Shown: piece after piece, positions 31,624-63,499 of the stretch
How the letters are laid out: each line of letters starts with the position of its first letter
Position numbering within the stretch: the stretch's first letter is position 1
From: a virus
Taxonomy: Duplodnaviria > Caudoviricetes
DNA: 64,000 nucleotides
Strand: one strand, 5' to 3'
Virus record (IMG/VR): IMGVR_UViG_3300009183_004565
Notes under the pieces: generated by a model
Database searches by the model: none
Seen by the model: only the letters and a program-made list of their open reading frames with translations
What the model was told of the DNA's origin: nothing
Program-made: the position numbers and the translations under genes

Positions 31624-31773
31624 ATGATTAAGACTAAAACACTTCCTGTACAGCGTACCCGAGCACATCGTGTTTTGTTTGAGACTGGCAGTCCGTTTAA
31701 GTCGCGTACAGTGGAAAATAAAACCCGTTATCAACGTAACACCAAACATAGGGAAAGATCGTATGACGCCTGA
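31624..31773 (+). CDS. 49-aa basic protein, ArfA-like (not in ORF track)
   Basis: MIKTKTLPVQRTRAHRVLFETGSPFKSRTVENKTRYQRNTKHRERSYDA; loosely parallels ArfA LHDPLFRQRVEKN..Y.RKGKH; TAAATA 6 nt upstream. Confidence 0.4.
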   Translation: MIKTKTLPVQRTRAHRVLFETGSPFKSRTVENKTRYQRNTKHRERSYDA

Positions 31774-31942
31774 TTATAGCCCACGTTTTTATAAAAGCGT
31801 AAGTCTAAACCGTAAGCGTCATGTTGTTGATGCTATGTTAGAAGACCTACACGAACAGTATTTTACCATGATTGAACGAGCACTGGAACATAGCAATATG
31901 CAGCAGGCCCGTGATGTAATCGAGTACGTGCAAGCCCTGTAG
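31763..31942 (+). CDS. Hypothetical protein
   Basis: Start moved to ATG 31763 (in frame with the track ORF); followed by a terminator. Confidence 0.55.
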   Translation: MTPDYSPRFYKSVSLNRKRHVVDAMLEDLHEQYFTMIERALEHSNMQQARDVIEYVQAL

Positions 31943-31968
31943 TTTCTCCTCGGAAAAGTGAAGTTTTC

Positions 31969-31994
31969 AAACCCGCTTAGGCGGGTTTTCTTTT
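31969..31994 (+). terminator. Intrinsic terminator
   Basis: aaacccgc-ttag-gcgggttttctttt. Confidence 0.85.
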
Positions 31995-32048
31995 ATCCGA
32001 AATTCCATAATTCCCAAGCTAAATAACAAATATACATTTGAGATTGGC

Positions 32049-32714
32049 ATGGCCGCAAACGGAATATCAACATTAGCAACAAAAGAACTAAAGCAAAAGG
32101 CTAAACTTGACTTAGCGGCTTCAGACCGAGCCGCTCGCAGCAAGGCTAGATCAACCTATGATCTAAGTCAGCTACCAACTCAATATAACGATAACAGTAT
32201 CGTTAACAATCCAAACAGCGGGGGATTAGTTCGAGGACGCCCATGGATTACCACAGTCTCTGCCTTTACATTCTACGAAGCATTTGGAACAACTACAGCA
32301 ATATCAACCACACAGTATGTAAGTGGTAACAAGATATACGCTGAATCATCAACATATGATGTTCCTAGTTTTCAACCTGCCAGAGTACTTGTTAATGATA
32401 TCGAAGTACTACTTCAGGGAGATAGCCCACTTCCATATGGCCGTGGTCACAACTTGGTAGTGCTAGACTCCAATGGTAATGTTGTTACCGCAGCCACACA
32501 GTATGATACTTACATTAGTCCTGCTAATCTAACCACATTAATTTCAGCATTAAATGCAGTAGCAAGCGGAAACATTGTGGTGTTAGTAACGTATGATGCT
32601 TCGGCAGTAAGTGCTGGGCTACGTTCAGCAATTAACACAGGTTACGGATCCACTAATGCTAACACATGGGCGGCAGGTAGAAATAGCCACATTTTTATTG
32701 GCGTAAAAATTTAA
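32049..32714 (+). CDS. Virion protein with C-terminal ILEI/PANDER-like (GG-lectin-like) domain
   Basis: GRGHNLVVLD...QYDTY...NIVVLVTYDAS...GRNSHIFIG. Confidence 0.55.
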   Translation: MAANGISTLATKELKQKAKLDLAASDRAARSKARSTYDLSQLPTQYNDNSIVNNPNSGGLVRGRPWITTVSAFTFYEAFGTTTAISTTQYVSGNKIYAESSTYDVPSFQPARVLVNDIEVLLQGDSPLPYGRGHNLVVLDSNGNVVTAATQYDTYISPANLTTLISALNAVASGNIVVLVTYDASAVSAGLRSAINTGYGSTNANTWAAGRNSHIFIGVKI

Positions 32715-35056: not shown

Positions 35057-35135
35057 TGCTATAATACAGGTATAAATAATTGTGTAGGATGCTTCGGGTC
35101 CTATAAAACTTGCTTATTTTTAAGGAGAAACTATG
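35057..35135 (+). promoter_or_regulatory. dnaK leader: extended -10, late promoter, UUCG hairpin and ROSE-like SD-occluding hairpin
   Basis: TGCTATAAT 35057-35065, TATAAATA 35071-35078, gtaggat-g-c-TTCG-g-gtcctat 35084-35104, CTTGCTT 35109-35115 complementary (bulged G) to AAGGAG 35122-35127. Confidence 0.7.
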
Positions 35136-37019
35136 AGTACAATCATTGGTATCGATCTTGGTACCACCAATAGCTGCGTAGCAGTAATCGAAAACGGAAC
35201 CCCAAAAGTAATTGAAAATTCAGAAGGCGCACGTACTACACCTAGTATCGTTGCCTATACTGCTGAAGAGATTATTGTGGGAGCCGGTGCAAAACGTCAA
35301 GCAGTTACCAATCCAAAAAACACAATCTATGCGTCCAAGCGTTTAATAGGGCGTAAATTTACGGAACAGGCAGTTCAAAAAGATATTGATCTCATGCCTT
35401 ACAAGATCATCGAAAGCGCGAACGGCGATGCATGGGTGTCAGTCAACGACACGGAACTAGCACCTCCACAAATCAGTGCCGAAGTGCTTCGCAAAATGAA
35501 GAAGACCGCAGAAGACTATCTGGGTCATGAAGTAACACAGGCTGTAATTACTGTGCCTGCTTACTTCAATGACAGTCAACGACAGGCAACCAAAGATGCC
35601 GGAGCAATTGCTGGACTAGAAGTATTGCGTATTATCAATGAGCCAACTGCAGCAGCATTGGCATACGGAGTCGATAAAAATGAAAAAGCTGATCGCAAGA
35701 TCGCTGTGTACGATCTGGGTGGTGGTACCTTTGATGTTAGCATTATTGACATTGCTAATGTGGACGGTGATAAGCAATTTGAAGTCCTTTCCACCAATGG
35801 TGATACATTCCTAGGCGGTGAAGACTTTGACCAACGCATCATGGATTACTTGATCACTGAGTTTAAGAAAGAGTCAGGCGTTGATCTTGGTCGAGACGTT
35901 ATGGCACTGCAACGTCTAAAAGAAGCTGCAGAACGTACCAAGATTGAATTGAGTAACAGCACACAAACAGATGTGAACTTGCCTTACATCACAGCAGATG
36001 CTACAGGTCCCAAGCACATGAACATCAAGATGACTCGTGCTAAACTGGAAAGCCTAGTTGATGAATTGATTCAGCGCAGTATTGAACCTTGCCGTGTTGC
36101 AATGAAGGACGCAGGTGTCGTAGCCACGGACATCGATGAAGTTATCCTTGTTGGTGGTATGACACGTATGCCACGGGTTCAGGAAGAAGTTGAAAAGTTA
36201 TTTGGACGAGCACCACGTCGTGATGTCAATCCAGATGAAGCAGTAGCGGTTGGTGCAGCAGTACAAGGTGCTGTACTAGGTGGTAGCCGTAAAGACGTTC
36301 TATTACTTGATGTGACCCCACTAAGCCTAGGTATTGAAACCATGGGCGGCGTGATGACGAAACTAATCCAAAAGAATACCACTATTCCTACCAAGCATAG
36401 CCAGGTATTCTCTACAGCCGAAGACAACCAGCCGGCAGTAACTATCAAAGTCTATCAAGGCGAACGCGAACTTGTACAATATAATAAAACATTAGGTGAG
36501 TTTAATCTAGAAGGAATTCAACCTGCTCGACGTGGTGTACCGCAAGTAGAAGTCACGCTGGATGTTGACGCCAATGGTATTCTTAAAGTAAGTGCCAAAG
36601 ATAAAAGTACTGGCAAAGAAAACCGGATTACTATCAAGTCGGACAGTGGTCTAAGCCGAGAGCAGATTGAAGAAATGATTCGCGATGCCGAAGCTAATGC
36701 AGATGCAGACACAAAGCAACGTGAATTGATCGAAGTACGTAACCAAGCAGATGCAGTTGTCCACAAGATTCAAACTGATATGAAAGAAGCGGAAGGCAAG
36801 CTTTCGGAAGATCAGACGAAACAAATAGATGAGGCAATTGCCAACCTCAACAAGGCAATAGCAGAAACAGACAAAGAACTAATTACCACCAAGGTATCTG
36901 AGTTACTTGTTGCTGCGAATATTATTAATGAACTACAACAGCCGCAGACTACAGAAGAACAGCCCGAGCCTAAGGCCGATGACAATGTGGTTGACGCTGA
37001 ATTTAAAGAAACGAAGTAA
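35133..37019 (+). CDS. dnaK: Hsp70 chaperone DnaK
   Basis: [50 protein letters not shown]-terminal VVDAEFKE. Confidence 0.99.
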
Positions 37020-54158: not shown

Positions 54159-54712
54159 TTTTGTTAGTAACAGCGGGTGTCTGCAGCTCTGCCATGGCAG
54201 AATGCTACATGCGCTCTGCTACAGTTAAAGAATCCAAATCCACGGTTACAAGAATTGCAGACATCAAGCGTTATGTAACTCCTGTGGATGCAGAGCATTT
54301 TAAATGTACCGTGGGATTTAGAGCTGAAGTTAACCATGTGTGGCAAACCGGCGAAGGGCAAAGTATCGGAACTAACGGTGACAGCATTGATACTGTATGT
54401 ACCCAAGCACTAGATTCCGCACGTAGTTATTTGTTGGCCCGAGTCAGTAATGGTAAAATGTTAAATGAACAAGAAATGATTTGTACAGATCGCCCGGATC
54501 CAGAAGTCAAGTCCGTTAAAATTGGCGATATAGTACAGATATCAGAATTGGCACCACATCCACAAAAACCTGATTTCTTTGCGTATCGTGGAGCTCAATG
54601 TCGTTGGTTTGTAGAAACGGATGTCAATTTAGCAGCCAGAGACCTTTTTCAATGGCAAGGTATTGCCTGTAATGTGCGAAAAGGTGAATGGCAAGTGATT
54701 GACAAATTTTAA
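54143..54712 (+). CDS. Secreted Cys-rich protein
   Basis: Signal peptide ending AMA-E; six further Cys. Confidence 0.65.
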   Translation: MSKLLILLVTAGVCSSAMAECYMRSATVKESKSTVTRIADIKRYVTPVDAEHFKCTVGFRAEVNHVWQTGEGQSIGTNGDSIDTVCTQALDSARSYLLARVSNGKMLNEQEMICTDRPDPEVKSVKIGDIVQISELAPHPQKPDFFAYRGAQCRWFVETDVNLAARDLFQWQGIACNVRKGEWQVIDKF

Positions 54713-54727
54713 TCAACCTGTTATAAT
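54699..54727 (+). promoter_or_regulatory. Consensus sigma70 promoter with extended -10
   Basis: TTGACA-17 bp-TATAAT with TG; ATG 6 nt downstream. Confidence 0.85.
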
Positions 54728-54733
54728 ACAGCT

Positions 54734-54868
54734 ATGAATAAATTATTCCTAATTATAGTATTTGCAGCAACAGCGTTCGCTACCGGCTGTTCTACGGTAG
54801 CAGGAGCCGGTAAAGATATTACTAGCGGCGCCGAATATGTTCGTGATAAAATTGGAGGTAGTAAATGA
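54734..54868 (+). CDS. Entericidin EcnA/B-like lipopeptide (44 aa, not in ORF track)
   Basis: MNKLFLIIVFAATAFATG-CSTVAGAGKDITSGAEYVRDKIGGSK matches the EcnA/B C-x-T-x-x-G-x-G-K-D-I pattern. Confidence 0.75.
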   Translation: MNKLFLIIVFAATAFATGCSTVAGAGKDITSGAEYVRDKIGGSK

Positions 54869-55431
54869 AGAAGTTTCTAGTCCTGGTTCCTGTAGTTGCA
54901 GTCCTCGCTGCCTGTGGCACGACAGAAAAGTTTGAAAAGCGCACTGAGCAGATTACCGAGCGTCAAGAGAAGCTGGCGGAACGTGCAATTGACAAGGCTC
55001 CCAAGTGGATGACGCAACTGCCAGAATCTAGTGCCGCTGTGTATGCCAATGGTAGCGCAGTTAGTCGTGACTTTAGCATGGCCGATGAAAAGGCCAAACT
55101 GGTTGCACTTGGTAAGATTTGTACTGCAGCCGGTGGTGAAGTAGACAAGCAGAGCAAGATGTTCTTGAGTGACACAGAAGATACCAGTGTTGAGCGCAGT
55201 GAGAGTGCTATACGTTCCATGTGCCGCGGTGTAGATGTATCGGGTACCGAGATCATTGAAGTTAAACGTATTGCAGAAGGTGCACGTTTTAGGTCGTACA
55301 TTCTAGTTAGTTTACCCATGGGAGAAGCTAATCAACTGGCAATACGTAACGATCGTCGTCGAGCGGCAGCAGGTACCAAAGTACGTTCCGATCGAGCATT
55401 TGACGAAATGGATGCCAACAACAAACGATAG
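54865..55431 (+). CDS. Lipoprotein (LPP20-like)
   Basis: MKKFLVLVPVVAVLAA-C lipobox; APKWM..YANGSA..A..KA..AL pattern. Confidence 0.7.
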   Translation: MKKFLVLVPVVAVLAACGTTEKFEKRTEQITERQEKLAERAIDKAPKWMTQLPESSAAVYANGSAVSRDFSMADEKAKLVALGKICTAAGGEVDKQSKMFLSDTEDTSVERSESAIRSMCRGVDVSGTEIIEVKRIAEGARFRSYILVSLPMGEANQLAIRNDRRRAAAGTKVRSDRAFDEMDANNKR

Positions 55432-55444
55432 TAGCATTTTAAAC

Positions 55445-55470
55445 AAAAATGCCCTTCGGGGCATTTTTTT
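55445..55470 (+). terminator. Intrinsic terminator
   Basis: aaaaatgccc-TTCG-gggcatttttttt. Confidence 0.92.
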
Positions 55471-55510
55471 TGACAAAAACTTCTTAAATTCAAATACCAC
55501 TAAATACTAG

Positions 55511-56512
55511 ATGCGCTTACACGAAATTTCACAAAAGACCAAATATCGCCCAGAAGTATTCCTGGACATGGACGGTGTTCTAGCCGATTTCTTCTCAGAA
55601 TATGCTGTACTAGCCGGATTACCCCCAGGCAGTAGCTATAGGGAAATCCCCCCAGCTAAAAGTGATCCTACCTTGAACAAAATGATAGGCACTGACTTCT
55701 TTTACAGATTGCCTAAGTTTAGTACAGCGGACGCACTAGTGGCAATGGTAGTAAAGTTCTTTGGTGGATACAACATCTGCTCAAGTCCGTTACGTGGAGA
55801 CCATGAAAATTCAGGCGTACAAAAAACACGTTGGATTCAACAACATCTAAATCCACAACCCCAACACATTTACATAGAATCACGTAAAGAACGATATGCA
55901 TTACAGCCCGACGGTACACCCAATATCCTAATTGATGATCGTAAAGACAACATCATTAGATGGGAAGCGGCTGGCGGTGTGGGTATCAAGTATCAAGCAG
56001 ATGAAGATGGGCTAGATGTAATTGCTCGAGGTTTACGTCGTGCATTGGAAATATATAAAGGGCGGCGTGAGCAGGATCAGTTGCCGTTAACACCAAGTTT
56101 GGATCGTGGGGCTCCGGTAGCAACGGCCCAAGATCAACAGGTTAAAGAAAGTACTGCAAGCGATCATGAAGAACGAATTCGTCATTTTATGCAGTGGTGC
56201 AAGCATAAGTTAAAACTAGAACAAGAATTACCCGACATAGAATTCAGTGACGAAAAAGACAGTGAAGGCATGCACCATACCGGTTACTATAATGATCAAG
56301 AAGATAAACTATGGGTCTATACCGGTAATCGTAATCTAATAGATATACTACGCACAGTGGCACATGAATTTACCCATCGTAAACAAGATGAACAAGGTAG
56401 AATTGATCCCGATCAATCTTATCCCGGCAGTCCAATTGAACAAGAAGCAGATGCAGTGGCCGGATACCTAATGAAACTTTACGGTAAAGAATATCCGGAG
56501 ATTATAGAATGA
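55511..56512 (+). CDS. Fusion: HAD 5'(3')-nucleotidase plus zincin-like metallopeptidase
   Basis: FLDMDGVLADF and LIDDR (HAD); after the VKE linker, AHEFTH...EQEADA (HExxH); TAAATA 4 nt before ATG. Confidence 0.8.
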   Translation: MRLHEISQKTKYRPEVFLDMDGVLADFFSEYAVLAGLPPGSSYREIPPAKSDPTLNKMIGTDFFYRLPKFSTADALVAMVVKFFGGYNICSSPLRGDHENSGVQKTRWIQQHLNPQPQHIYIESRKERYALQPDGTPNILIDDRKDNIIRWEAAGGVGIKYQADEDGLDVIARGLRRALEIYKGRREQDQLPLTPSLDRGAPVATAQDQQVKESTASDHEERIRHFMQWCKHKLKLEQELPDIEFSDEKDSEGMHHTGYYNDQEDKLWVYTGNRNLIDILRTVAHEFTHRKQDEQGRIDPDQSYPGSPIEQEADAVAGYLMKLYGKEYPEIIE

Positions 56513-57207
56513 GGTCGGATGATTTTGTAGCAGGTAATGTAGATTATCACGAAGAACTAAGCCCAGCTGCCTGGGACGGCGACGAGCTACGTACCGACGT
56601 TCGTGTTCACTTGCTACGTGCCGCAAAGTTTTTTACTGCTTATCTTGAGATTCCAGGATTTCGAGTGTATGATGTTGTACTAACAGGCAGCATGGCCAAT
56701 TACAACTACACAAAATTTAGTGACTTTGATCTACATGTGGTCACACGTTACGCAGACCTAGAGTGTGATGATCTTGCTGAAGCATTTTATCGTGCTAAAA
56801 AATCTATATGGAATGATGCACATGACATTACTATTCGTGGTCATGAAGTAGAACTGTATGTTGAGGATGTTGACAATCCTCCAGTCAGTTCGGGCATGTA
56901 CAGTTTGTTGTCTGGCACATGGATCAAGGAGCCCGAATACTCCGCGCCTACAGTGGACAATACTGCCATCAATGCCAAGGTACGTGATCTAATTAAACAA
57001 ATTGATGTTGCTATAGCACAGGCCGATGACCCCGAAGACATCAAACGTATCACAGACAAACTGAGAAAGATGCGTCGATCAGGCCTAGATACTGCTGGCG
57101 AGTTTGGCGTAGAGAATTTAACATTCAAGATACTACGTAACCTAGGTTATCTAGATGCATTAAATACAGCATTCCATAATGAACAAGATCAGGATTTAAG
57201 TTTATGA
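56509..57207 (+). CDS. Pol-beta-superfamily nucleotidyltransferase
   Basis: LTGSMANY..SDFDLH and ELYVED triad. Confidence 0.75.
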   Translation: MRSDDFVAGNVDYHEELSPAAWDGDELRTDVRVHLLRAAKFFTAYLEIPGFRVYDVVLTGSMANYNYTKFSDFDLHVVTRYADLECDDLAEAFYRAKKSIWNDAHDITIRGHEVELYVEDVDNPPVSSGMYSLLSGTWIKEPEYSAPTVDNTAINAKVRDLIKQIDVAIAQADDPEDIKRITDKLRKMRRSGLDTAGEFGVENLTFKILRNLGYLDALNTAFHNEQDQDLSL

Positions 57208-60086
57208 GATATAAAGAATTCAATTTAACTGAAGATGAGTTGTTTGAGCTCAAAATGAGTCCAAGCAATCTTAAGAAGATGGCCGCAGAAACCGGTGCAG
57301 TGGCCGGCATAGAATTTGAAATGTATGTGCCCGGTGCTGCCGAAGCCGACGAAGACGATTACGAAGTTGAACCAGACTATGAAATGGACGAAAGTTTTCC
57401 AACTGGTCGTGGTTGGCGTCAGGAGGTGATAGATTTCTTTAGAGGTGGCGATTATGGCAGTACTCGCAGCACAATCCAACGTGCCCTTGATAACCTAGAT
57501 GAAGATTACTGGTCATGGAAGGATGAAAACTTTGAGGAATGGTTCAATGACAATGACTCATTGCTAGACAACTATCTCAGAGAAGAACTTCCACAGGACC
57601 CAGATGAAAGTGACGACGAATACACAGAACGATTGGGCAGCGACGATGAAGAAGTCCAACAGGCACGAGAGCGGGCCATGGAGCGAATGCGTGAGGAACA
57701 CCAAAGCGAAGATCAATGGGAAGATTTCTTACGAGATCAAGATATTGGATCCATGTTGGACTTCGGTAACCGAGAGAGTCTTGATTGGCCCTATGTCAAC
57801 TATCCCGAAAGCAGTGGTGGCAGCGTAGATATCAGTGATGTTGCTAGCGATTTTCAATCAGCAATTGGTCGCAGAGTCAAATCAGGTAGTTACCACAGTG
57901 GTGCTGGCAGTCAAACCGATAACTATCGGGTAGAACCAGATGGCAGTCTCACTGATCCCAACGATTCATATGATGGTGGCCTTGAATTTATCAGTCCTCC
58001 ACTGCCATTGGCTGAAATGTTATCAGACTTGGAAAAGGTAGTCAAATGGGCCGCTCGCAACGACTGTTATACCAATGACAGTACCGGACTGCACATGAAT
58101 GTCAGTGTACCTGGCTTTGAACTCAACAAACTTGATTATGTCAAACTGGCTATATTCTTGGGCGACGAATATGTATTAGATCAATTTGGTCGTGCCGGTA
58201 ACACCTACTGTGCCAGCGCCATGGAAAAGATTAAAAGTATTGCCAGGACTCAGCCAGATAAAGTCAAGACTATGCTGCAACAGATGCAGGGTAATCTAAG
58301 TGCTATGGCATCCAAGATTGTACACACTGGCACTACAAGCAAATATACCAGTATTAACACCAAAGATGGCTACATTGAGTTTCGTAGTCCAGGAGGTGAC
58401 TGGCTGGGAGAATATGCTGCTGATCCTGGTAAGATTACCAATACTCTACTACGTTTCACAGTGGCGCTTGATGTTGCCATGAAGCCAGAAGCATTTAGAC
58501 AAGAGTACATGAAGAAGTTGTACAAGACTTTATCACTGGGCGAAAGTGATGACACTATTCAATTCTTTGCACGTTATGCTGCCGGCGCCTTACCACAGTC
58601 GGCCCTGAAGAGTTTTGTCAAGCAAGCACAAATACAGCGTAAAGCTAAAAAACTACTGCCTGGCGCAATCAAAGGACAACAATTAATTCAGTGGCAGGCC
58701 ACTTCAGGTGCAGCTACCGCTACTGTTGTGGCACGTACCGAAGAGGAAGCAAGAAAGAAAGCTGCCTTCAATATTGGTATTCCGTTCACTGACAGTGCTA
58801 TAGACCGAATGGACATACAGCCCTTGGATCTTTATACCGGGCCAGTTAACAAATACAGAATCATTAGAGACTCTAACGGAGCCGAACTAGACACCATCGA
58901 AGGTGTTGACGAACGCGATGCTATCACAAACTTCCGAGTAACTAAACCCCATTGGACCACTGATATAACTGCTCGATTGGTAACACCAAATCAATCTCCT
59001 CCAGATTATCCGGCAGCGACCAGTAACACACCGGGTTCGTGGACCATCATGAATCAATCGACTCGTAGAATGTTACAAGGCGTTGGTGGCACATTCATTT
59101 ATGCCTCCCAAGCAGCAGCAGAGATAGCCATGGGTAACAACATACGTCGTGCAGATATCCGTATCATAAACACCGACAATGGTCAGGTCTATGACATTGA
59201 CGGACGTCCTACTAGATACAATACCGGCACAGAATCAAACACTTCAAGTCGTGATCAAGAGTTTACTGGCACTTGGGAAGTTGTAAGTAGACCCACTGAT
59301 GAAGTTGTATATACCATAAGTGGTATAGGTAATGCGGTTTCTGATGCAGAAAGATATGCAAATAGATGGGTTGATCAAACAGGATTTAGTGATCCTGTTT
59401 ATGTGCGTCCACAAATGCAGCCAAGATCCACGGGTGGCGGCGGATTTGACCGAGCACCACATACCAGCATATATCAATTGGTTGATAATAGAGATGGTAG
59501 AATATTACTAGGTGGCGAAACACGAACTTTTGCCTACACTGTTGAAATGGCTGGTCTTGCGATTCGTAGTTATGGTGTTCCTTCCGGCGATATTAGAATT
59601 ATTGATATGGCTACCAATCGTTCTTATAACATAGATGGTTCACCTGCTAATACATCTGCACCAGCAGCACAAACAGAACAACTTTACAATGTTAGATGGA
59701 CAGATGAAAATGGCGAACACGATGTAAATCGTAGAGCTCCTAATGCCAATGCTGCCATGGAGGATGTGCGTAACAGTTTAGAAAGCGGCAGATTTAGAGT
59801 AATTTCTATAGAAGCCAACCCTATAGGATCAAACACCGGTGATTCTACTCCTATTCCTGGTTCTACCATGGACCGAGTTCAACAACGAGCACAAGGATCG
59901 GAAAGTTTACCACCAGGTAATGCACGTTGGTTGATACTGGATCGCAATAACCAAGAAGTATATTCGTTTATTAATACCACAACACAAAGCGATGCCAATC
60001 AGTATGCAAGGAATTGGCTGCTTAATACTGCATCGGCTGAAGTTAGAGACCGCGGCCCATTTGATATATTACCGGTGTCAAGATGA
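57204..60086 (+). CDS. Putative amidoligase (COOH-NH2 ligase type 2) with acidic N-terminus and repeated C-terminal modules
   Basis: GIEFE, EPDGS, GLEFISPPL, STGLHMNVS, KYTSIN, YIEFRSPG; about 7 degenerate beta-beta-alpha repeats after residue ~490. Confidence 0.7.
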   Translation: MRYKEFNLTEDELFELKMSPSNLKKMAAETGAVAGIEFEMYVPGAAEADEDDYEVEPDYEMDESFPTGRGWRQEVIDFFRGGDYGSTRSTIQRALDNLDEDYWSWKDENFEEWFNDNDSLLDNYLREELPQDPDESDDEYTERLGSDDEEVQQARERAMERMREEHQSEDQWEDFLRDQDIGSMLDFGNRESLDWPYVNYPESSGGSVDISDVASDFQSAIGRRVKSGSYHSGAGSQTDNYRVEPDGSLTDPNDSYDGGLEFISPPLPLAEMLSDLEKVVKWAARNDCYTNDSTGLHMNVSVPGFELNKLDYVKLAIFLGDEYVLDQFGRAGNTYCASAMEKIKSIARTQPDKVKTMLQQMQGNLSAMASKIVHTGTTSKYTSINTKDGYIEFRSPGGDWLGEYAADPGKITNTLLRFTVALDVAMKPEAFRQEYMKKLYKTLSLGESDDTIQFFARYAAGALPQSALKSFVKQAQIQRKAKKLLPGAIKGQQLIQWQATSGAATATVVARTEEEARKKAAFNIGIPFTDSAIDRMDIQPLDLYTGPVNKYRIIRDSNGAELDTIEGVDERDAITNFRVTKPHWTTDITARLVTPNQSPPDYPAATSNTPGSWTIMNQSTRRMLQGVGGTFIYASQAAAEIAMGNNIRRADIRIINTDNGQVYDIDGRPTRYNTGTESNTSSRDQEFTGTWEVVSRPTDEVVYTISGIGNAVSDAERYANRWVDQTGFSDPVYVRPQMQPRSTGGGGFDRAPHTSIYQLVDNRDGRILLGGETRTFAYTVEMAGLAIRSYGVPSGDIRIIDMATNRSYNIDGSPANTSAPAAQTEQLYNVRWTDENGEHDVNRRAPNANAAMEDVRNSLESGRFRVISIEANPIGSNTGDSTPIPGSTMDRVQQRAQGSESLPPGNARWLILDRNNQEVYSFINTTTQSDANQYARNWLLNTASAEVRDRGPFDILPVSR

Positions 60087-60994
60087 GAGCTAGCGAATTC
60101 GTAACAGAAGCACCACGTGACGTATTCCACTTCGTTGGGCATAGTCCTGCTGTTCCTCGCCCCACTGGAAATTATTACAAATGGCGTGTGAGTCTCAGCA
60201 ATGGTCAATACTATCATGTTAGAGCCGGTGCACACACTGACTTATCAAAATTCCAACAATACTTCACACGTAAATGGGGCGCAGAAATGCCCGATGTTGA
60301 AGCAGTGAAAGCCGAACGTTTAGAAAGACTCAGCGAACAAGATGTAGATGAAATGGCTGGCGAAATACACGGCGGGGTCAGGAAAGCCTTGATGGACAAA
60401 GGCTACAAATATCTAGGCAGCGGTATTGACAAGCAAGCATACCTAGAGCCAGGTACCGGACAGGTGTTGATCATATTTGGCTATCGCAAAGGTCAAAAAG
60501 ATTTCAGTCCTGATCAACGTATGTTTATAAACTGGATAAACTACTGTAATAAGAATCAGTCTAACCCACATTTACCCAAGTTCTCAGGATTTGAAAGTTT
60601 CAAATTCCAAGGCAAAAACTATATTCAAGCAAGAATGGAACCACTGCAAGAGTTACCTGATGAAATAGGATATCTAGTTGGACATGCTGATGAAGTTATA
60701 AAGAAACGCAAAACAGATTACAAAAAAGAACTCAAAACAATGTCACAGTATGCTATGCATACGTTTAATGACGAAGGCGGCGGTACATGGTATGAGTTAA
60801 AAGACGTCGTAAAGCATTTGGGTGGTAAAAAGGCAGCAGCGAATTTACTAAACACAGTGTATGATGTCAAACGTTTTGGACGTAAGCAAGGATACTCAAT
60901 TGATTTACACAAAGGAAATTATATGCAACGTGCCAACGGTACTATTGTGGTAAATGATCCTTTTGTATTATGGTTGAGGGGGATGCTAGATTGA
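60083..60994 (+). CDS. Protein-kinase-like domain protein with N-terminal extra module
   Basis: YLGSG Gly loop, HLPKF, RMEPL, DLHKGN catalytic loop, VNDP. Confidence 0.7.
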   Translation: MRASEFVTEAPRDVFHFVGHSPAVPRPTGNYYKWRVSLSNGQYYHVRAGAHTDLSKFQQYFTRKWGAEMPDVEAVKAERLERLSEQDVDEMAGEIHGGVRKALMDKGYKYLGSGIDKQAYLEPGTGQVLIIFGYRKGQKDFSPDQRMFINWINYCNKNQSNPHLPKFSGFESFKFQGKNYIQARMEPLQELPDEIGYLVGHADEVIKKRKTDYKKELKTMSQYAMHTFNDEGGGTWYELKDVVKHLGGKKAAANLLNTVYDVKRFGRKQGYSIDLHKGNYMQRANGTIVVNDPFVLWLRGMLD

Positions 60995-61641
60995 GAGCTA
61001 CTGAATTCATAGCAGAAGGTAAAAATACTCCAGTCATAGTAGTAGATGTTCAACCTGCCTATGTACCGTATGGGCCACAAGTATGTGAACGCATAGTGCA
61101 ATTTGTAAATAATCAAACAGGTCCCGTATTAATGTTTGTCAATGCTGAACGAGATGGAATGACCAATGATACCATTGATGATGTATTGTCTTATTGGGAA
61201 GAAACAGCAGCAGAGAATGATCCTGATTGGTATGACGATAATCCATTTGCACCAAGAAGTCCTGTAAATTGGAATCGTTTTCATATAGTAGACAAAGGGT
61301 ATGGTTGGTTTAGAACTTGGATGGATCAAGGAGTGCAACCAAAATTCATAATACAGTTGATTCGTTACATGTATCAGCGTAGAATAACCGACATTCGTGA
61401 TGACATTGATGGTGTTTATGAATATATGACACACAATCCCACAGGAGGCCAAATTGTTGATTGGCAGGATTGGATGGAAGATGAATCCTTTACAATCAAT
61501 TGGACCAGTGTAGCACAACTAAAAAGATTTAATGGATCTTATATAGTAGGCGGTGGTAGAGATGAATGCTTGCGTGAAGTCGAATTACTCATGAATGCAT
61601 TCAATATAAAATATAGAAGAGTGGATAGTTTGATTTACTGA
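60991..61641 (+). CDS. Isochorismatase/cysteine-hydrolase-like protein
   Basis: VIVVDVQP and IVGGGRDECLRE; TTG start (TTGA overlap, gagggg SD) gives MRATEFIAE. Confidence 0.55.
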   Translation: MRATEFIAEGKNTPVIVVDVQPAYVPYGPQVCERIVQFVNNQTGPVLMFVNAERDGMTNDTIDDVLSYWEETAAENDPDWYDDNPFAPRSPVNWNRFHIVDKGYGWFRTWMDQGVQPKFIIQLIRYMYQRRITDIRDDIDGVYEYMTHNPTGGQIVDWQDWMEDESFTINWTSVAQLKRFNGSYIVGGGRDECLREVELLMNAFNIKYRRVDSLIY

Positions 61642-62258
61642 TGAGAGCTAAAGAATTTATCACTGAAATAGATCGTAGAGGATTCCTAGGAGCACTAGGA
61701 GCTGGTGCTATGGCTGCTGCTGGAGTTCCTGCCGAAGCAAAATCCAAGAAACCAGAGCCAATGGCATTTTTAAGTGCCCACATGGAAGCAGAAGAAATGT
61801 TACACAAGACTGCTCTAAATTCCGGAATGCGTGGTACAGAACTGGCACAATTTTTAGCACAATGTTACCACGAATCTGCCGGCTTTGCTCGTATGCACGA
61901 ATATGCTAGCGGTGCAGAATACGAAGGACGTCGTGATCTTGGTAATGTAAACCGGGGCGACGGGGTGAGATACAAAGGACGTGGCTTTATACAGATCACC
62001 GGTAGAGATAACTATCGTCGTGCTGGACAAGCCCTGGGCTTGCCACTAGAAGAACGACCTGGATTAGCCAGTAGACCTGATGTTGCTGCACGGATTGCTG
62101 TATGGTATTGGGCAAGTCGTGTTAGACCCAATGTTGCTAACTTTAATGATACTCGTGCAGTTACACAACGTATCAATCCCAAACTAAATGGGCTAGCTGA
62201 TAGACACGAAAACTTTAAAGATTATAAAAATATGTTTGTTGCAACAAGGACAAGATAA
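61641..62258 (+). CDS. GH19 lysozyme/chitinase with twin-arginine signal
   Basis: FLAQCYHES, YEGRRDLGN..GDG.RYKGRGFIQITGRDNY, INPKLNGL; N-terminal DRRGFLG + hydrophobic + AEA. Confidence 0.88.
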   Translation: MRAKEFITEIDRRGFLGALGAGAMAAAGVPAEAKSKKPEPMAFLSAHMEAEEMLHKTALNSGMRGTELAQFLAQCYHESAGFARMHEYASGAEYEGRRDLGNVNRGDGVRYKGRGFIQITGRDNYRRAGQALGLPLEERPGLASRPDVAARIAVWYWASRVRPNVANFNDTRAVTQRINPKLNGLADRHENFKDYKNMFVATRTR

Positions 62259-63499
62259 TGAGAGCAAAAGATTTTGCACTAGAAGCAAAGCCGCTAGCAC
62301 CACTAGAAATACCAACACCAGCACAGTCCACAGTTGAAAAATCTGTCAAAATGGCCAATCATATTGACAAAGTGCTTGACCAATACGAAATTAAAAAATC
62401 AATTATTCAACAAGAAATAGACCGATTAAAAGATCAAATTGAATCACTAAAGTACGGCCCACCCGAAGGATCAACTGTAACACAGAAAGGTCGGGGATGG
62501 GTCGGTAGAGATAGAGAAGGACACCCAATTGGCGGCGGTCCCGTGGACGAAGCATTTGACCAACCTTATGACATGAGCTGGGAAAAAGGTGAAGCTGGCG
62601 AAGATTACGATGCACTGGTTCGACTACCCGATGGGTCTAATCTTTCCATAATGTTTAACGAAGAAGGTCCTGGTCAGTACATGGTTGAGTTCTGGAGAGG
62701 CGCTGAACAATCAGTTACTGGCGAAGGCGACGCACAAAGAATATTTGCCACTGTGTTAGCAGCAATAGCCAAATTTATACAACAACATCAACCACAATCA
62801 ATCGTCTTTTCTGCACACAAAGAAGATGATCCGGAACAAAAATCAGACAGCCGCAGTAAATTGTACAATAGATTAGTGCAGCGGTATGCCGGTACTATAG
62901 GTTATAGTTATCGAAGTTGGGATACTGGAGACAGTGTACAATATGAACTGACTAGATTAAAGCCGGGTGTAGCGGAAAGCAGAGAAAACTTCAATGGTAT
63001 AGATATCTCTCTTGAAATACAGAAAGATGATGAATATGTCGATGATGAAGATTATGATAACCAGGTAATATATGTTACTGCTAGTAGCAACGGTAGAGAA
63101 TTGGGTCATGTGTTATTTGCGTTTGATGGTGAATATTTAATGCCGCAGGATTTAGAAGTTGAAGAACGCTTTCGTGGTCAAGGTATTGCTCAAACAATGT
63201 ACGATTATGTAAAGAGTAAAGGATATAAAATTCGCCGTAGTGGACAACAAACTGATGCCGGCGCTGGATTTTGGGACAAACACAAAGGTCAAGGACAACA
63301 TGTCTGGGAGCAAGGTGTAGTGGAAAATTTCGCTGATGGCAAGGTCAAAGGTAAAAGCCGTCCAGGTCGGGTCAAACGTGCAGGTGCCAGTTGCAACGGA
63401 TCAGTCACTGACCTACGTCAACGTGCAAAAAATGCATCAGGTGAACGAGCCAAAATGTATCACTGGTGCGCTAACATGAAAAGCGGTCGTAAGAAATAA
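62258..63499 (+). CDS. Multi-module protein including a GNAT acetyltransferase domain
   Basis: LEVEERFRGQGIA acetyl-CoA motif and AGAGFW; modules separated by PVDE, GVAE, GVVE. Confidence 0.65.
   Translation: MRAKDFALEAKPLAPLEIPTPAQSTVEKSVKMANHIDKVLDQYEIKKSIIQQEIDRLKDQIESLKYGPPEGSTVTQKGRGWVGRDREGHPIGGGPVDEAFDQPYDMSWEKGEAGEDYDALVRLPDGSNLSIMFNEEGPGQYMVEFWRGAEQSVTGEGDAQRIFATVLAAIAKFIQQHQPQSIVFSAHKEDDPEQKSDSRSKLYNRLVQRYAGTIGYSYRSWDTGDSVQYELTRLKPGVAESRENFNGIDISLEIQKDDEYVDDEDYDNQVIYVTASSNGRELGHVLFAFDGEYLMPQDLEVEERFRGQGIAQTMYDYVKSKGYKIRRSGQQTDAGAGFWDKHKGQGQHVWEQGVVENFADGKVKGKSRPGRVKRAGASCNGSVTDLRQRAKNASGERAKMYHWCANMKSGRKK

Follow-up and report, generated by a model that had tools for sequence, protein, structure and literature searches.

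Positions 55511-63499 of the 64,000-nucleotide (nt) stretch of viral DNA analysed here (IMG/VR record IMGVR_UViG_3300009183_004565; Duplodnaviria, Caudoviricetes), which we call the window, carry seven co-directional genes on the plus strand, named below after their first positions (55511, 56509, 57204, 60083, 60991, 61641 and 62258), and every junction between them overlaps, by 1-4 nt. The window derives from a large phage, and the proteins it encodes include DnaK, ribonucleotide reductase and a DnaB-type helicase. Here we argue, from sequence comparison, that the seven genes probably encode head cargo of a large T4-type phage, made as chains that are borne by an N-terminal leader and would be cut at the joints between their modules by the prohead protease. 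Three of the genes hold the predicted joints, and their features are as follows (a slash marks a predicted cut):

55511..56512, plus strand: gene 55511, 333 amino acids (aa), two modules; 2117 homologues.
Residues 1-213 of gene 55511: nucleotidase module, HAD-type 5'(3')-deoxyribonucleotidase (PHROG 2643, E-value (E) 3e-19, residues 13-167).
Residues 214-333 of gene 55511: small zincin module with a HEFTH motif (PHROG 87 / DUF3920 over residues 225-324; zincin match over 225-317).
56141..56149, plus strand: joint 1, Q-Q-V211-K-E213/S214, predicted cleavage site in a Pro/Ala/Thr-rich linker; E213 codon at 56147-56149.
60083..60994, plus strand: gene 60083, 303 aa, leader MRASEFVTE; residues 10-90 are an N-module and residues 91-303 a protein-kinase-like module.
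60335..60352, plus strand: joint 2, L85-S-E87/Q-D-V88-D-E90/M91, double predicted cleavage site; E90 codon at 60350-60352.
62258..63499, plus strand: gene 62258, 413 aa, four modules, leader MRAKDFALE; its homologues number more than 4300 (267-717 aa; contigs up to 380 kb long).
Residues 10-98 of gene 62258: M1, a predicted long helix.
Residues 99-240 of gene 62258: M2, a DUF6934-like 'AFDQPY' module (PHROG match over residues 97-220).
Residues 241-356 of gene 62258: M3, GNAT (match over residues 256-324).
63326..63496, plus strand: M4, residues 357-413 of gene 62258, a basic 57-aa module that starts N-F-A-D-G-K and holds 16 K/R and 3 D/E.
62543..62551, plus strand: joint 3, P-V96-D-E98/A99, predicted cleavage site; E98 codon at 62549-62551.
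62969..62977, plus strand: joint 4, P-G-V238-A-E240/S241, predicted cleavage site; E240 codon at 62975-62977.
63302..63325, plus strand: joint 5, V349-W-E351/Q-G-V354-V-E356/N357, double predicted cleavage site; E356 codon at 63323-63325.

The proteins of the operon begin alike. The pattern M-R-x-x-[ED]-F-x(1-3)-E stands at the N-terminus of 5/7 of them and nowhere else in the window, and in most of the genes it takes the form M-R-x-x-E-F-[IV]-x-E, 9-10 residues long. A propeptide ending in [L/I/V]-x-E is present in genes 57204, 60083, 60991 and 61641; gene 55511 starts with M-R-L-H-E. In distant relatives the leader peptide is kept with varied residues (MRAKEFITE, MKINEIITE, MRYTEIVTE). The leader is like the T4 capsid targeting sequence and has the T4 gp21-type cleavage motif, hydrophobic-x-Glu, at its end. 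The internal proteins of T4 carry N-terminal targeting propeptides of 10-19 residues, with processing determinants at residues 8 and 10 (PMC9026906), and T4 Alt, whose N-terminus reads M-E-L-I-T-E, undergoes cleavage at ITE-6 and, near the C-terminus, at the internal LTE-619 (PMC5694885).

The same kind of motif lies inside the chains. The initial annotation had marked five V-x-E motifs as linkers at domain boundaries, and we find all five at the positions given, E213 in gene 55511, E90 in gene 60083 and E98, E240 and E356 in gene 62258, each between domain matches, with gene 62258 divided into four modules that include the GNAT and a basic C-terminal one. Their number says little: [VILM]-x-E occurs at or below its composition expectation in 7/7 operon proteins, and V-x-E exceeds expectation in gene 62258 only (5 vs 2.1), so the sequence of the window alone could not show significance. 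The signal is the position of the motif and its conservation across homologues, not its number in the window. Against a background rate of 1.85% per position, and counting distinct upstream contexts among homologues, [VILM]-x-E stands directly before the start of M2 in 64/65 contexts (15 of them a bare N-terminal leader), directly before M4 (N-F-A-D-G) in 48/49 and directly before the start of M3 in 43-47/67. Position P2 is unconstrained at the joints (T, A, N, S, E, V, W), and at P3 Val is commonest, then Ile, then Leu or Met. In 66 IMG/VR contexts before M4, P1 is Glu in 66/66 and P3 is V, I, L or M in 58/66, spelled with 12 codons. Because P1 is constant, the P3 class is kept through 12 codons and P2 is free, selection is on the peptide and not on a DNA word; a DNA-level recombination signal at the joints is rejected, since the codons vary freely and the residue class is kept. 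Inside modules the motif falls below its shuffle expectation, to 0.15 of it in the zincin, 0.17 in M4 and 0.67 in M2.

Each joint has its own record among the relatives. At joint 1, V211-K-E213 is the sole internal [VILM]-x-E of the gene 55511 protein; the nucleotidase-zincin architecture is conserved, and the variable linker holds the motif in 95 of the 96 distinct linkers among homologues, whereas shuffling each of them would be expected to leave it in 48. Two relatives (P0355 and P0359) have an extra GNAT-like or ParB-like cassette inserted at this position, flanked by two V-A-E sites, and a third (P0331) has another module placed after V-K-E. At joint 2, about 100 homologues show the kinase-like module joined through [LIV]-[DE]-E/M-A-G to at least 8 unrelated upstream modules, or to a bare leader. 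The equivalents of joint 3 in vibriophages read L-C-E/AFDRP (KVP40) and L-T-E/AFDRP (ValKK3), and E240 of joint 4 is nearly invariant in homologues.

Minima of AlphaFold's per-residue confidence (predicted local distance difference test, pLDDT) had also been expected at the sites, and in genes 60083 and 62258, the two modelled, each of joints 2-5 does lie in a segment with pLDDT<50. In gene 60083 the sole internal segment of this kind is 86-95, between two confident domains, and it coincides with the double site. In gene 62258 such segments include 86-99, 235-242 and 327-357, with one predicted site in each, and the non-joint sites M-V-E144 and V-E-E303 fall in predicted strands.

The relatives treat the modules as separable units. 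As had been anticipated, the modules occur both stand-alone and reshuffled, and the joint motif is kept: those of gene 62258 are found in another order (M3-M2-M4) or straight after a 9-residue leader, and elsewhere they are split by other cassettes or fused to dCMP deaminase, ParB, NUDIX or GH19 domains. Modules found behind a bare leader in some proteins stand behind an internal joint in others, and homologue alignments begin and end at the boundaries that the motif defines. At the other extreme, single open reading frames (ORFs) of 1588 aa (L004:5220-9983) and 1873 aa (L017:4257-9875) unite the nucleotidyltransferase, the zincin, the amidoligase, a small-domain tail and GH19; each opens with just one short leader, M-N-I-L-E, at the N-terminus and bears the motif at its joints; in the 1588-aa ORF, GH19 is the last module, behind L-E-E/G, with its hydrophobic segment, resembling a twin-arginine translocation (Tat) signal, kept. 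A syntenic 368-kb contig (L093) gives a closer view, with 77-86% DNA identity over the operon. Against gene 62258, its DNA homology stops at 62286, 2 nt past the leader Glu codon, comes back at 65% over M2, stops again at 62980, 3 nt past the E240 codon, and resumes at 63308, 18 nt ahead of M4; M1 is absent and three other cassettes replace the GNAT. Cassettes are therefore exchanged at the joints, even among close relatives.

A low-complexity cassette also recurs between enzyme modules of relatives (P0013, P0060, L017, L040 and L055), and runs from a Lys/Arg run through a Gly/Tyr/Phe-rich stretch to an acidic Gly run closed by the joint motif.

A Pfam S77 protease, of the T4 gp21 type, is present in 7/10 large IMG/VR contigs carrying polyproteins (a relative's gp21-like protease is, for instance, the ORF at L083:1444-2079), and among five contigs searched, a gp23-type capsid protein adjoins the protease in 4/4 protease-positive ones. 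In two genomes (G003 and G004) the gene that lies between those for the protease and the capsid protein, by its position the scaffold gene, holds 28 and 22 motifs where 12.9 and 11.0 would be expected; of the motifs in the capsid protein, 4 fall within the first 45 residues, as against 1-2 over the 350 that follow. This distribution follows the pattern of T4, in which the scaffold is shredded and the capsid propeptide cut at several points. Relatives of the protease number more than 508 in metagenomes, and IMG/VR stretches with homologues more than 595; in a metagenome scan with the protease alignment, the contig of L093 was not among the 80 loci kept.

We propose the following route. The N-terminal leader would carry the whole chain into the prohead scaffolding core, where a gp21-like prohead protease would cut after the Glu of the leader and after each joint Glu, freeing a nucleotidase, a small zincin, a kinase-like enzyme, the DUF6934-like module, a GNAT acetyltransferase and a 57-aa basic peptide; the released products would remain in the head and then reach the host with the DNA. 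This fits gp21-like cleavage because the end of the leader matches the internal joints and because relatives have the T4-type module of protease, scaffold and capsid protein. As each module ends in the same short joint, modules could be exchanged, fused or separated without loss of processing, which would explain the extreme shuffling in relatives. The polyprotein reading is well supported in silico; packaging, cleavage, ejection and the roles of the enzymes in the host are steps that we infer. The strongest argument for the protease is that leader end and joints are of the same site class and evolutionarily interchangeable, that four unrelated modules share the upstream motif and that the motif is avoided inside modules.

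Several observations weigh against this proposal. (i) No prohead protease gene was found within the window, and in one relative rated 99% complete (G001, 342,865 bp, locus L005), which has polyproteins, gp21-type and gp23-type genes went undetected by Pfam models and by a protease query taken from a relative. (ii) A T4-type TATAAATA late promoter is absent upstream of the operon. (iii) The leader is not uniform: that of gene 62258 ends F-A-L-E, with Ala at P3, gene 56509 (MRSDDF start) is without one, and some relatives' leaders end F-T-T-E. (iv) The low-confidence segment 327-357 is broader than a linker and takes in conserved GNAT residues, and the AlphaFold model puts weak secondary structure over joints 4 and 5. 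(v) The homologues are mutually related, so the context counts given above are non-independent events.

The chains might instead act whole, as uncleaved multidomain 'polyvalent' effectors in which the joint Glu motif would be a linker or capping feature or the remnant of a leader, and this we consider unlikely. It has precedent: phages commonly encode polyvalent proteins, of 2-15 disparate domains, and some of these, such as the N4 virion RNA polymerase, are packaged without processing (PMC5512222); in addition, an internal leader-like stretch sits after an L-V-E site in fused amidoligase ORFs of relatives, a sign that fusion of leader-bearing genes happens. A neutral scar would decay, however, whereas before M4 the Glu is constant and the P3 residue, though spelled with 12 codons, remains hydrophobic, amid variable flanks and a variable P2. 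Nor would a scar account for one motif preceding four unrelated downstream modules and being avoided within modules. Sites of its class are, moreover, the ones enriched in the relatives' scaffold and capsid propeptide, and one that lay exposed in a prohead with an active gp21-type protease would be expected to be cut.

Cutting by another peptidase, either the small zincin (HEFTH) of the cluster or a host protease, is a more doubtful proposition. A zincin-like module does lie in gene 55511, and in relatives inside the large fused ORFs, and embedded peptidases are predicted to release the domains of polyvalent proteins (Iyer et al., PMC5512222). But the joint motif is of the same class as the leader end and the T4 gp21 motif, many joint-bearing polyproteins have no zincin of their own, and the zincin, bounded by motifs and internally depleted of them, looks like cargo and not like a processing enzyme. 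Just as improbable, in our judgement, is that the proteins are not head cargo and act in the cell late in infection, their shared N-terminus serving translation initiation or coupling or another kind of sorting: the overlapping junctions do place the starts under translational-coupling constraint, a scan for TATAAATA and CTAAATAC found no late promoter, and the Tat-like segment of the GH19 protein would also fit an ordinary exported lysin, yet the leader is conserved as a peptide with varied residues in distant relatives, is like the targeting peptide of T4 and has the protease motif at its end, and the same motif at internal joints far from start codons would be left unexplained.

We return to head cargo released by the prohead protease, and to the basic module M4, the best-conserved piece of the gene 62258 family, with about 90-95% identity in many IMG/VR loci that are otherwise unmatched (L030-L082). 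It is C-terminal in 96/106 occurrences, and is also found as stand-alone viral proteins of 48-61 aa; it matches no Pfam family, and its protein-atlas matches are unnamed small viral proteins only. Tentatively, and with a good deal less confidence than we place in the cargo proposal itself, we suggest that the head-protease site is the universal joint of a cassette system in which M4 closes the chains and, after cleavage, may serve as a C-terminal DNA-binding or ejection-coupling peptide. If so, any module ending in hydrophobic-x-Glu could enter any leader-bearing chain by recombination without losing its loading and release; the set of injected enzymes in the head would be combinatorial and open to rapid exchange, and the chains would have a loading signal at the N-terminus and a DNA anchor at the C-terminus.

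The arrangement shares features with several known systems and differs from each of them: (i) As with IPI, IPII, IPIII and Alt of T4, a short N-terminal leader ends in hydrophobic-x-Glu, diverse and fast-evolving cargo stands behind a conserved leader, and the relatives keep the gene order protease, scaffold, capsid protein. In T4, however, each cargo is one functional protein that loses its propeptide, whereas here several unrelated enzyme modules share a chain, each joint of which bears a site; large-scale shuffling of these modules is seen; and P3, Leu or Ile in T4, is most commonly Val. In T4, processing is blocked by Asp at P1. (ii) With polyvalent proteins (PMC5512222) these chains share disparate domains on one polypeptide (GNAT, kinase, nucleotidyltransferase, ParB, NUDIX, zincin), predicted entry into the host with the DNA, extreme domain mosaicism and a putative zincin-like peptidase module. 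Two or more disparate domains on one polypeptide, the mark of that class, are found in genes 55511, 60083 and 62258. Polyvalent proteins have a MuF-like or other virion anchor, and their processing is predicted to fall to embedded peptidases, whereas here we propose that a T4-like leader does the targeting and the head protease the releasing; no MuF or other head-structural domain appeared in Pfam and PHROG scans of the seven operon proteins. (iii) In phiKZ, 201phi2-1 and SPN3US, many head-internal proteins are cut after Glu, often at multiple sites in one protein, and what the cuts release remains in the head and is ejected (PMC5694885, PMC9026906). The chains described here resemble these inner-body and ejection proteins in being head-internal and cut after Glu at several sites, both predicted. 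They differ in the site, which is S/A/G-x-E for the S80 protease of the phiKZ type, as against a P3 of V, I, L or M at the joints (58/66, 64/65 and 48/49 contexts) and an S77 protease in the relatives, and in that the multiple cuts of the phiKZ type mainly clear propeptides and do not separate enzyme modules. (iv) Polyproteins from RNA viruses of eukaryotes likewise combine one translation product, short consensus sites and functional units; in adenoviruses, the virion protease cuts core precursors inside the particle and yields small basic DNA-associated peptides. In both cases the lineages, proteases and domains are unrelated, and the likeness is an analogy only. Full-text searches of the literature returned no account of polyproteins that are borne by a leader and have a head-protease site at each of their joints.

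Should cutting at the joints take place, a very large group of uncultured T4-like jumbo phages would, besides trimming structural proteins with the maturation protease, use it to unpack multi-enzyme chains in the head. One leader and one three-residue joint would then be the rule by which sets of injected enzymes are assembled and reshuffled; the mosaic 'hypothetical' ORFs of 300-1900 aa in such genomes would be explained, and mature virion proteins with their real N-termini could be read from sequence. The arrangement would also suggest a naturally occurring template for getting several proteins into T4-type heads with a single construct.

The remaining four genes of the operon are these:

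56509..57207, plus strand: gene 56509, 232 aa, nucleotidyltransferase fold (PHROG 36119, E 1e-50; weak NTP_transf_2 match).
57204..60086, plus strand: gene 57204, 960 aa, with leader MRYKEFNLTE, an acidic region, Amidoligase_2 (PF12224, E 6e-9) and a long variable C-terminal half.
60991..61641, plus strand: gene 60991, 216 aa, leader M-R-A-T-E-F-I-A-E, likely TTG start, function unassigned.
61641..62258, plus strand: gene 61641, 205 aa, GH19 muramidase/chitinase-like (PF00182, E 6e-11; PHROG 181, E 6e-42), leader MRAKEFITE followed by a Tat-like hydrophobic segment.

Gene 56509 has neither a canonical cut site near its N-terminus nor a predicted internal joint, and its homologue is the first module of the fused ORFs of 1400-1900 aa in relatives. 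In gene 57204, residues 1-490 are conserved across 17 loci, and joint motifs are absent between the apparent small domains of residues ~500-960. The amidoligase tails of relatives differ, with recurring short segments W-W-x-V ... V-E-V-V-A-T; internal repeats, suspected by eye in the C-terminal half of gene 57204, gave no significant match in a self-BLAST and were discarded. The start of gene 60991 is likely the TTG at 60991 and not the ATG at 60970 chosen by the ORF finder, because the TTG overlaps the preceding TGA (TTGA), has GAGG 11 nt upstream and yields a leader; the L093 homologue has an ATG start and the leader MRAQDFLTE.

As to the enzyme modules themselves, the family matches of the zincin are weak (DUF3920 E 8e-4, PHROG 87 E 5e-3), and the HEFTH module is found in gene 55511 alone. 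The kinase-like module matches PHROG 15752 over residues 101-294 (E 4.8e-6), with an invariant D-L-H-x-G-N and also an N-D-P, and the top 50 Foldseek matches in PDB listed for gene 60083 are protein-kinase or aminoglycoside/antibiotic-kinase folds, with E about 1e-4.

One suggestion of the initial annotation, a faint likeness between the AFDQPY module and the N-terminal part of T4 Alt, found no sequence support. An alignment of 17 module sequences compared by hhalign with Alt 1-200 gave a probability of 0.14% (E 0.42), BLASTP of the KVP40 homologue against Alt was blank in the N-terminal region, with its best E of 0.048 elsewhere in both proteins, and neither result is significant. A tblastn search returned KVP40-like vibriophages only. 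A Foldseek search of BFVD returned an Acinetobacter phage 'split RNA polymerase ADP-ribosylase' (E 1.8e-4), a weak hint for which the aligned region is not established. The AFDQPY homologue KVP40.0058 (L001, KVP40 31688-32569) lies directly after the DNA ligase gene 30, and its 12-residue leader ends L-C-E; T4 alt (L087, T4 123454-125502) also comes after gene 30, the small gene alt.1 being all that separates the two.

No close cultured relative came to light when the region was compared by megablast with 50,697 phage records, which gave no match, and in protein searches cultured phages, namely KVP40-like vibriophages and T4-like cyanophages, showed single modules only. In the promoter scan neither TATAAATA nor CTAAATAC was enriched, and neither is a convincing marker of the operon; a scan for sigma-70 promoters and terminators placed no plus-strand terminator inside the operon, with an overall signal not above that of shuffles. 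Upstream of the operon, a perfect sigma-70 consensus (TTGACA, 17 nt, TATAAT, with TG) stands at 54699-54727, ahead of a small ORF and a lipoprotein-like gene (54865-55431), and a GC stem followed by a T-run, seen by eye at 55448-55472, lies between that gene and the cargo operon. Farther away, at 35133-37019, the window encodes the full-length DnaK/Hsp70, with ~65% identity to its best matches in the phage collection; several of these are unannotated or bacterial-looking records, and weaker matches lie in metagenomic phages of 630-735 kb.

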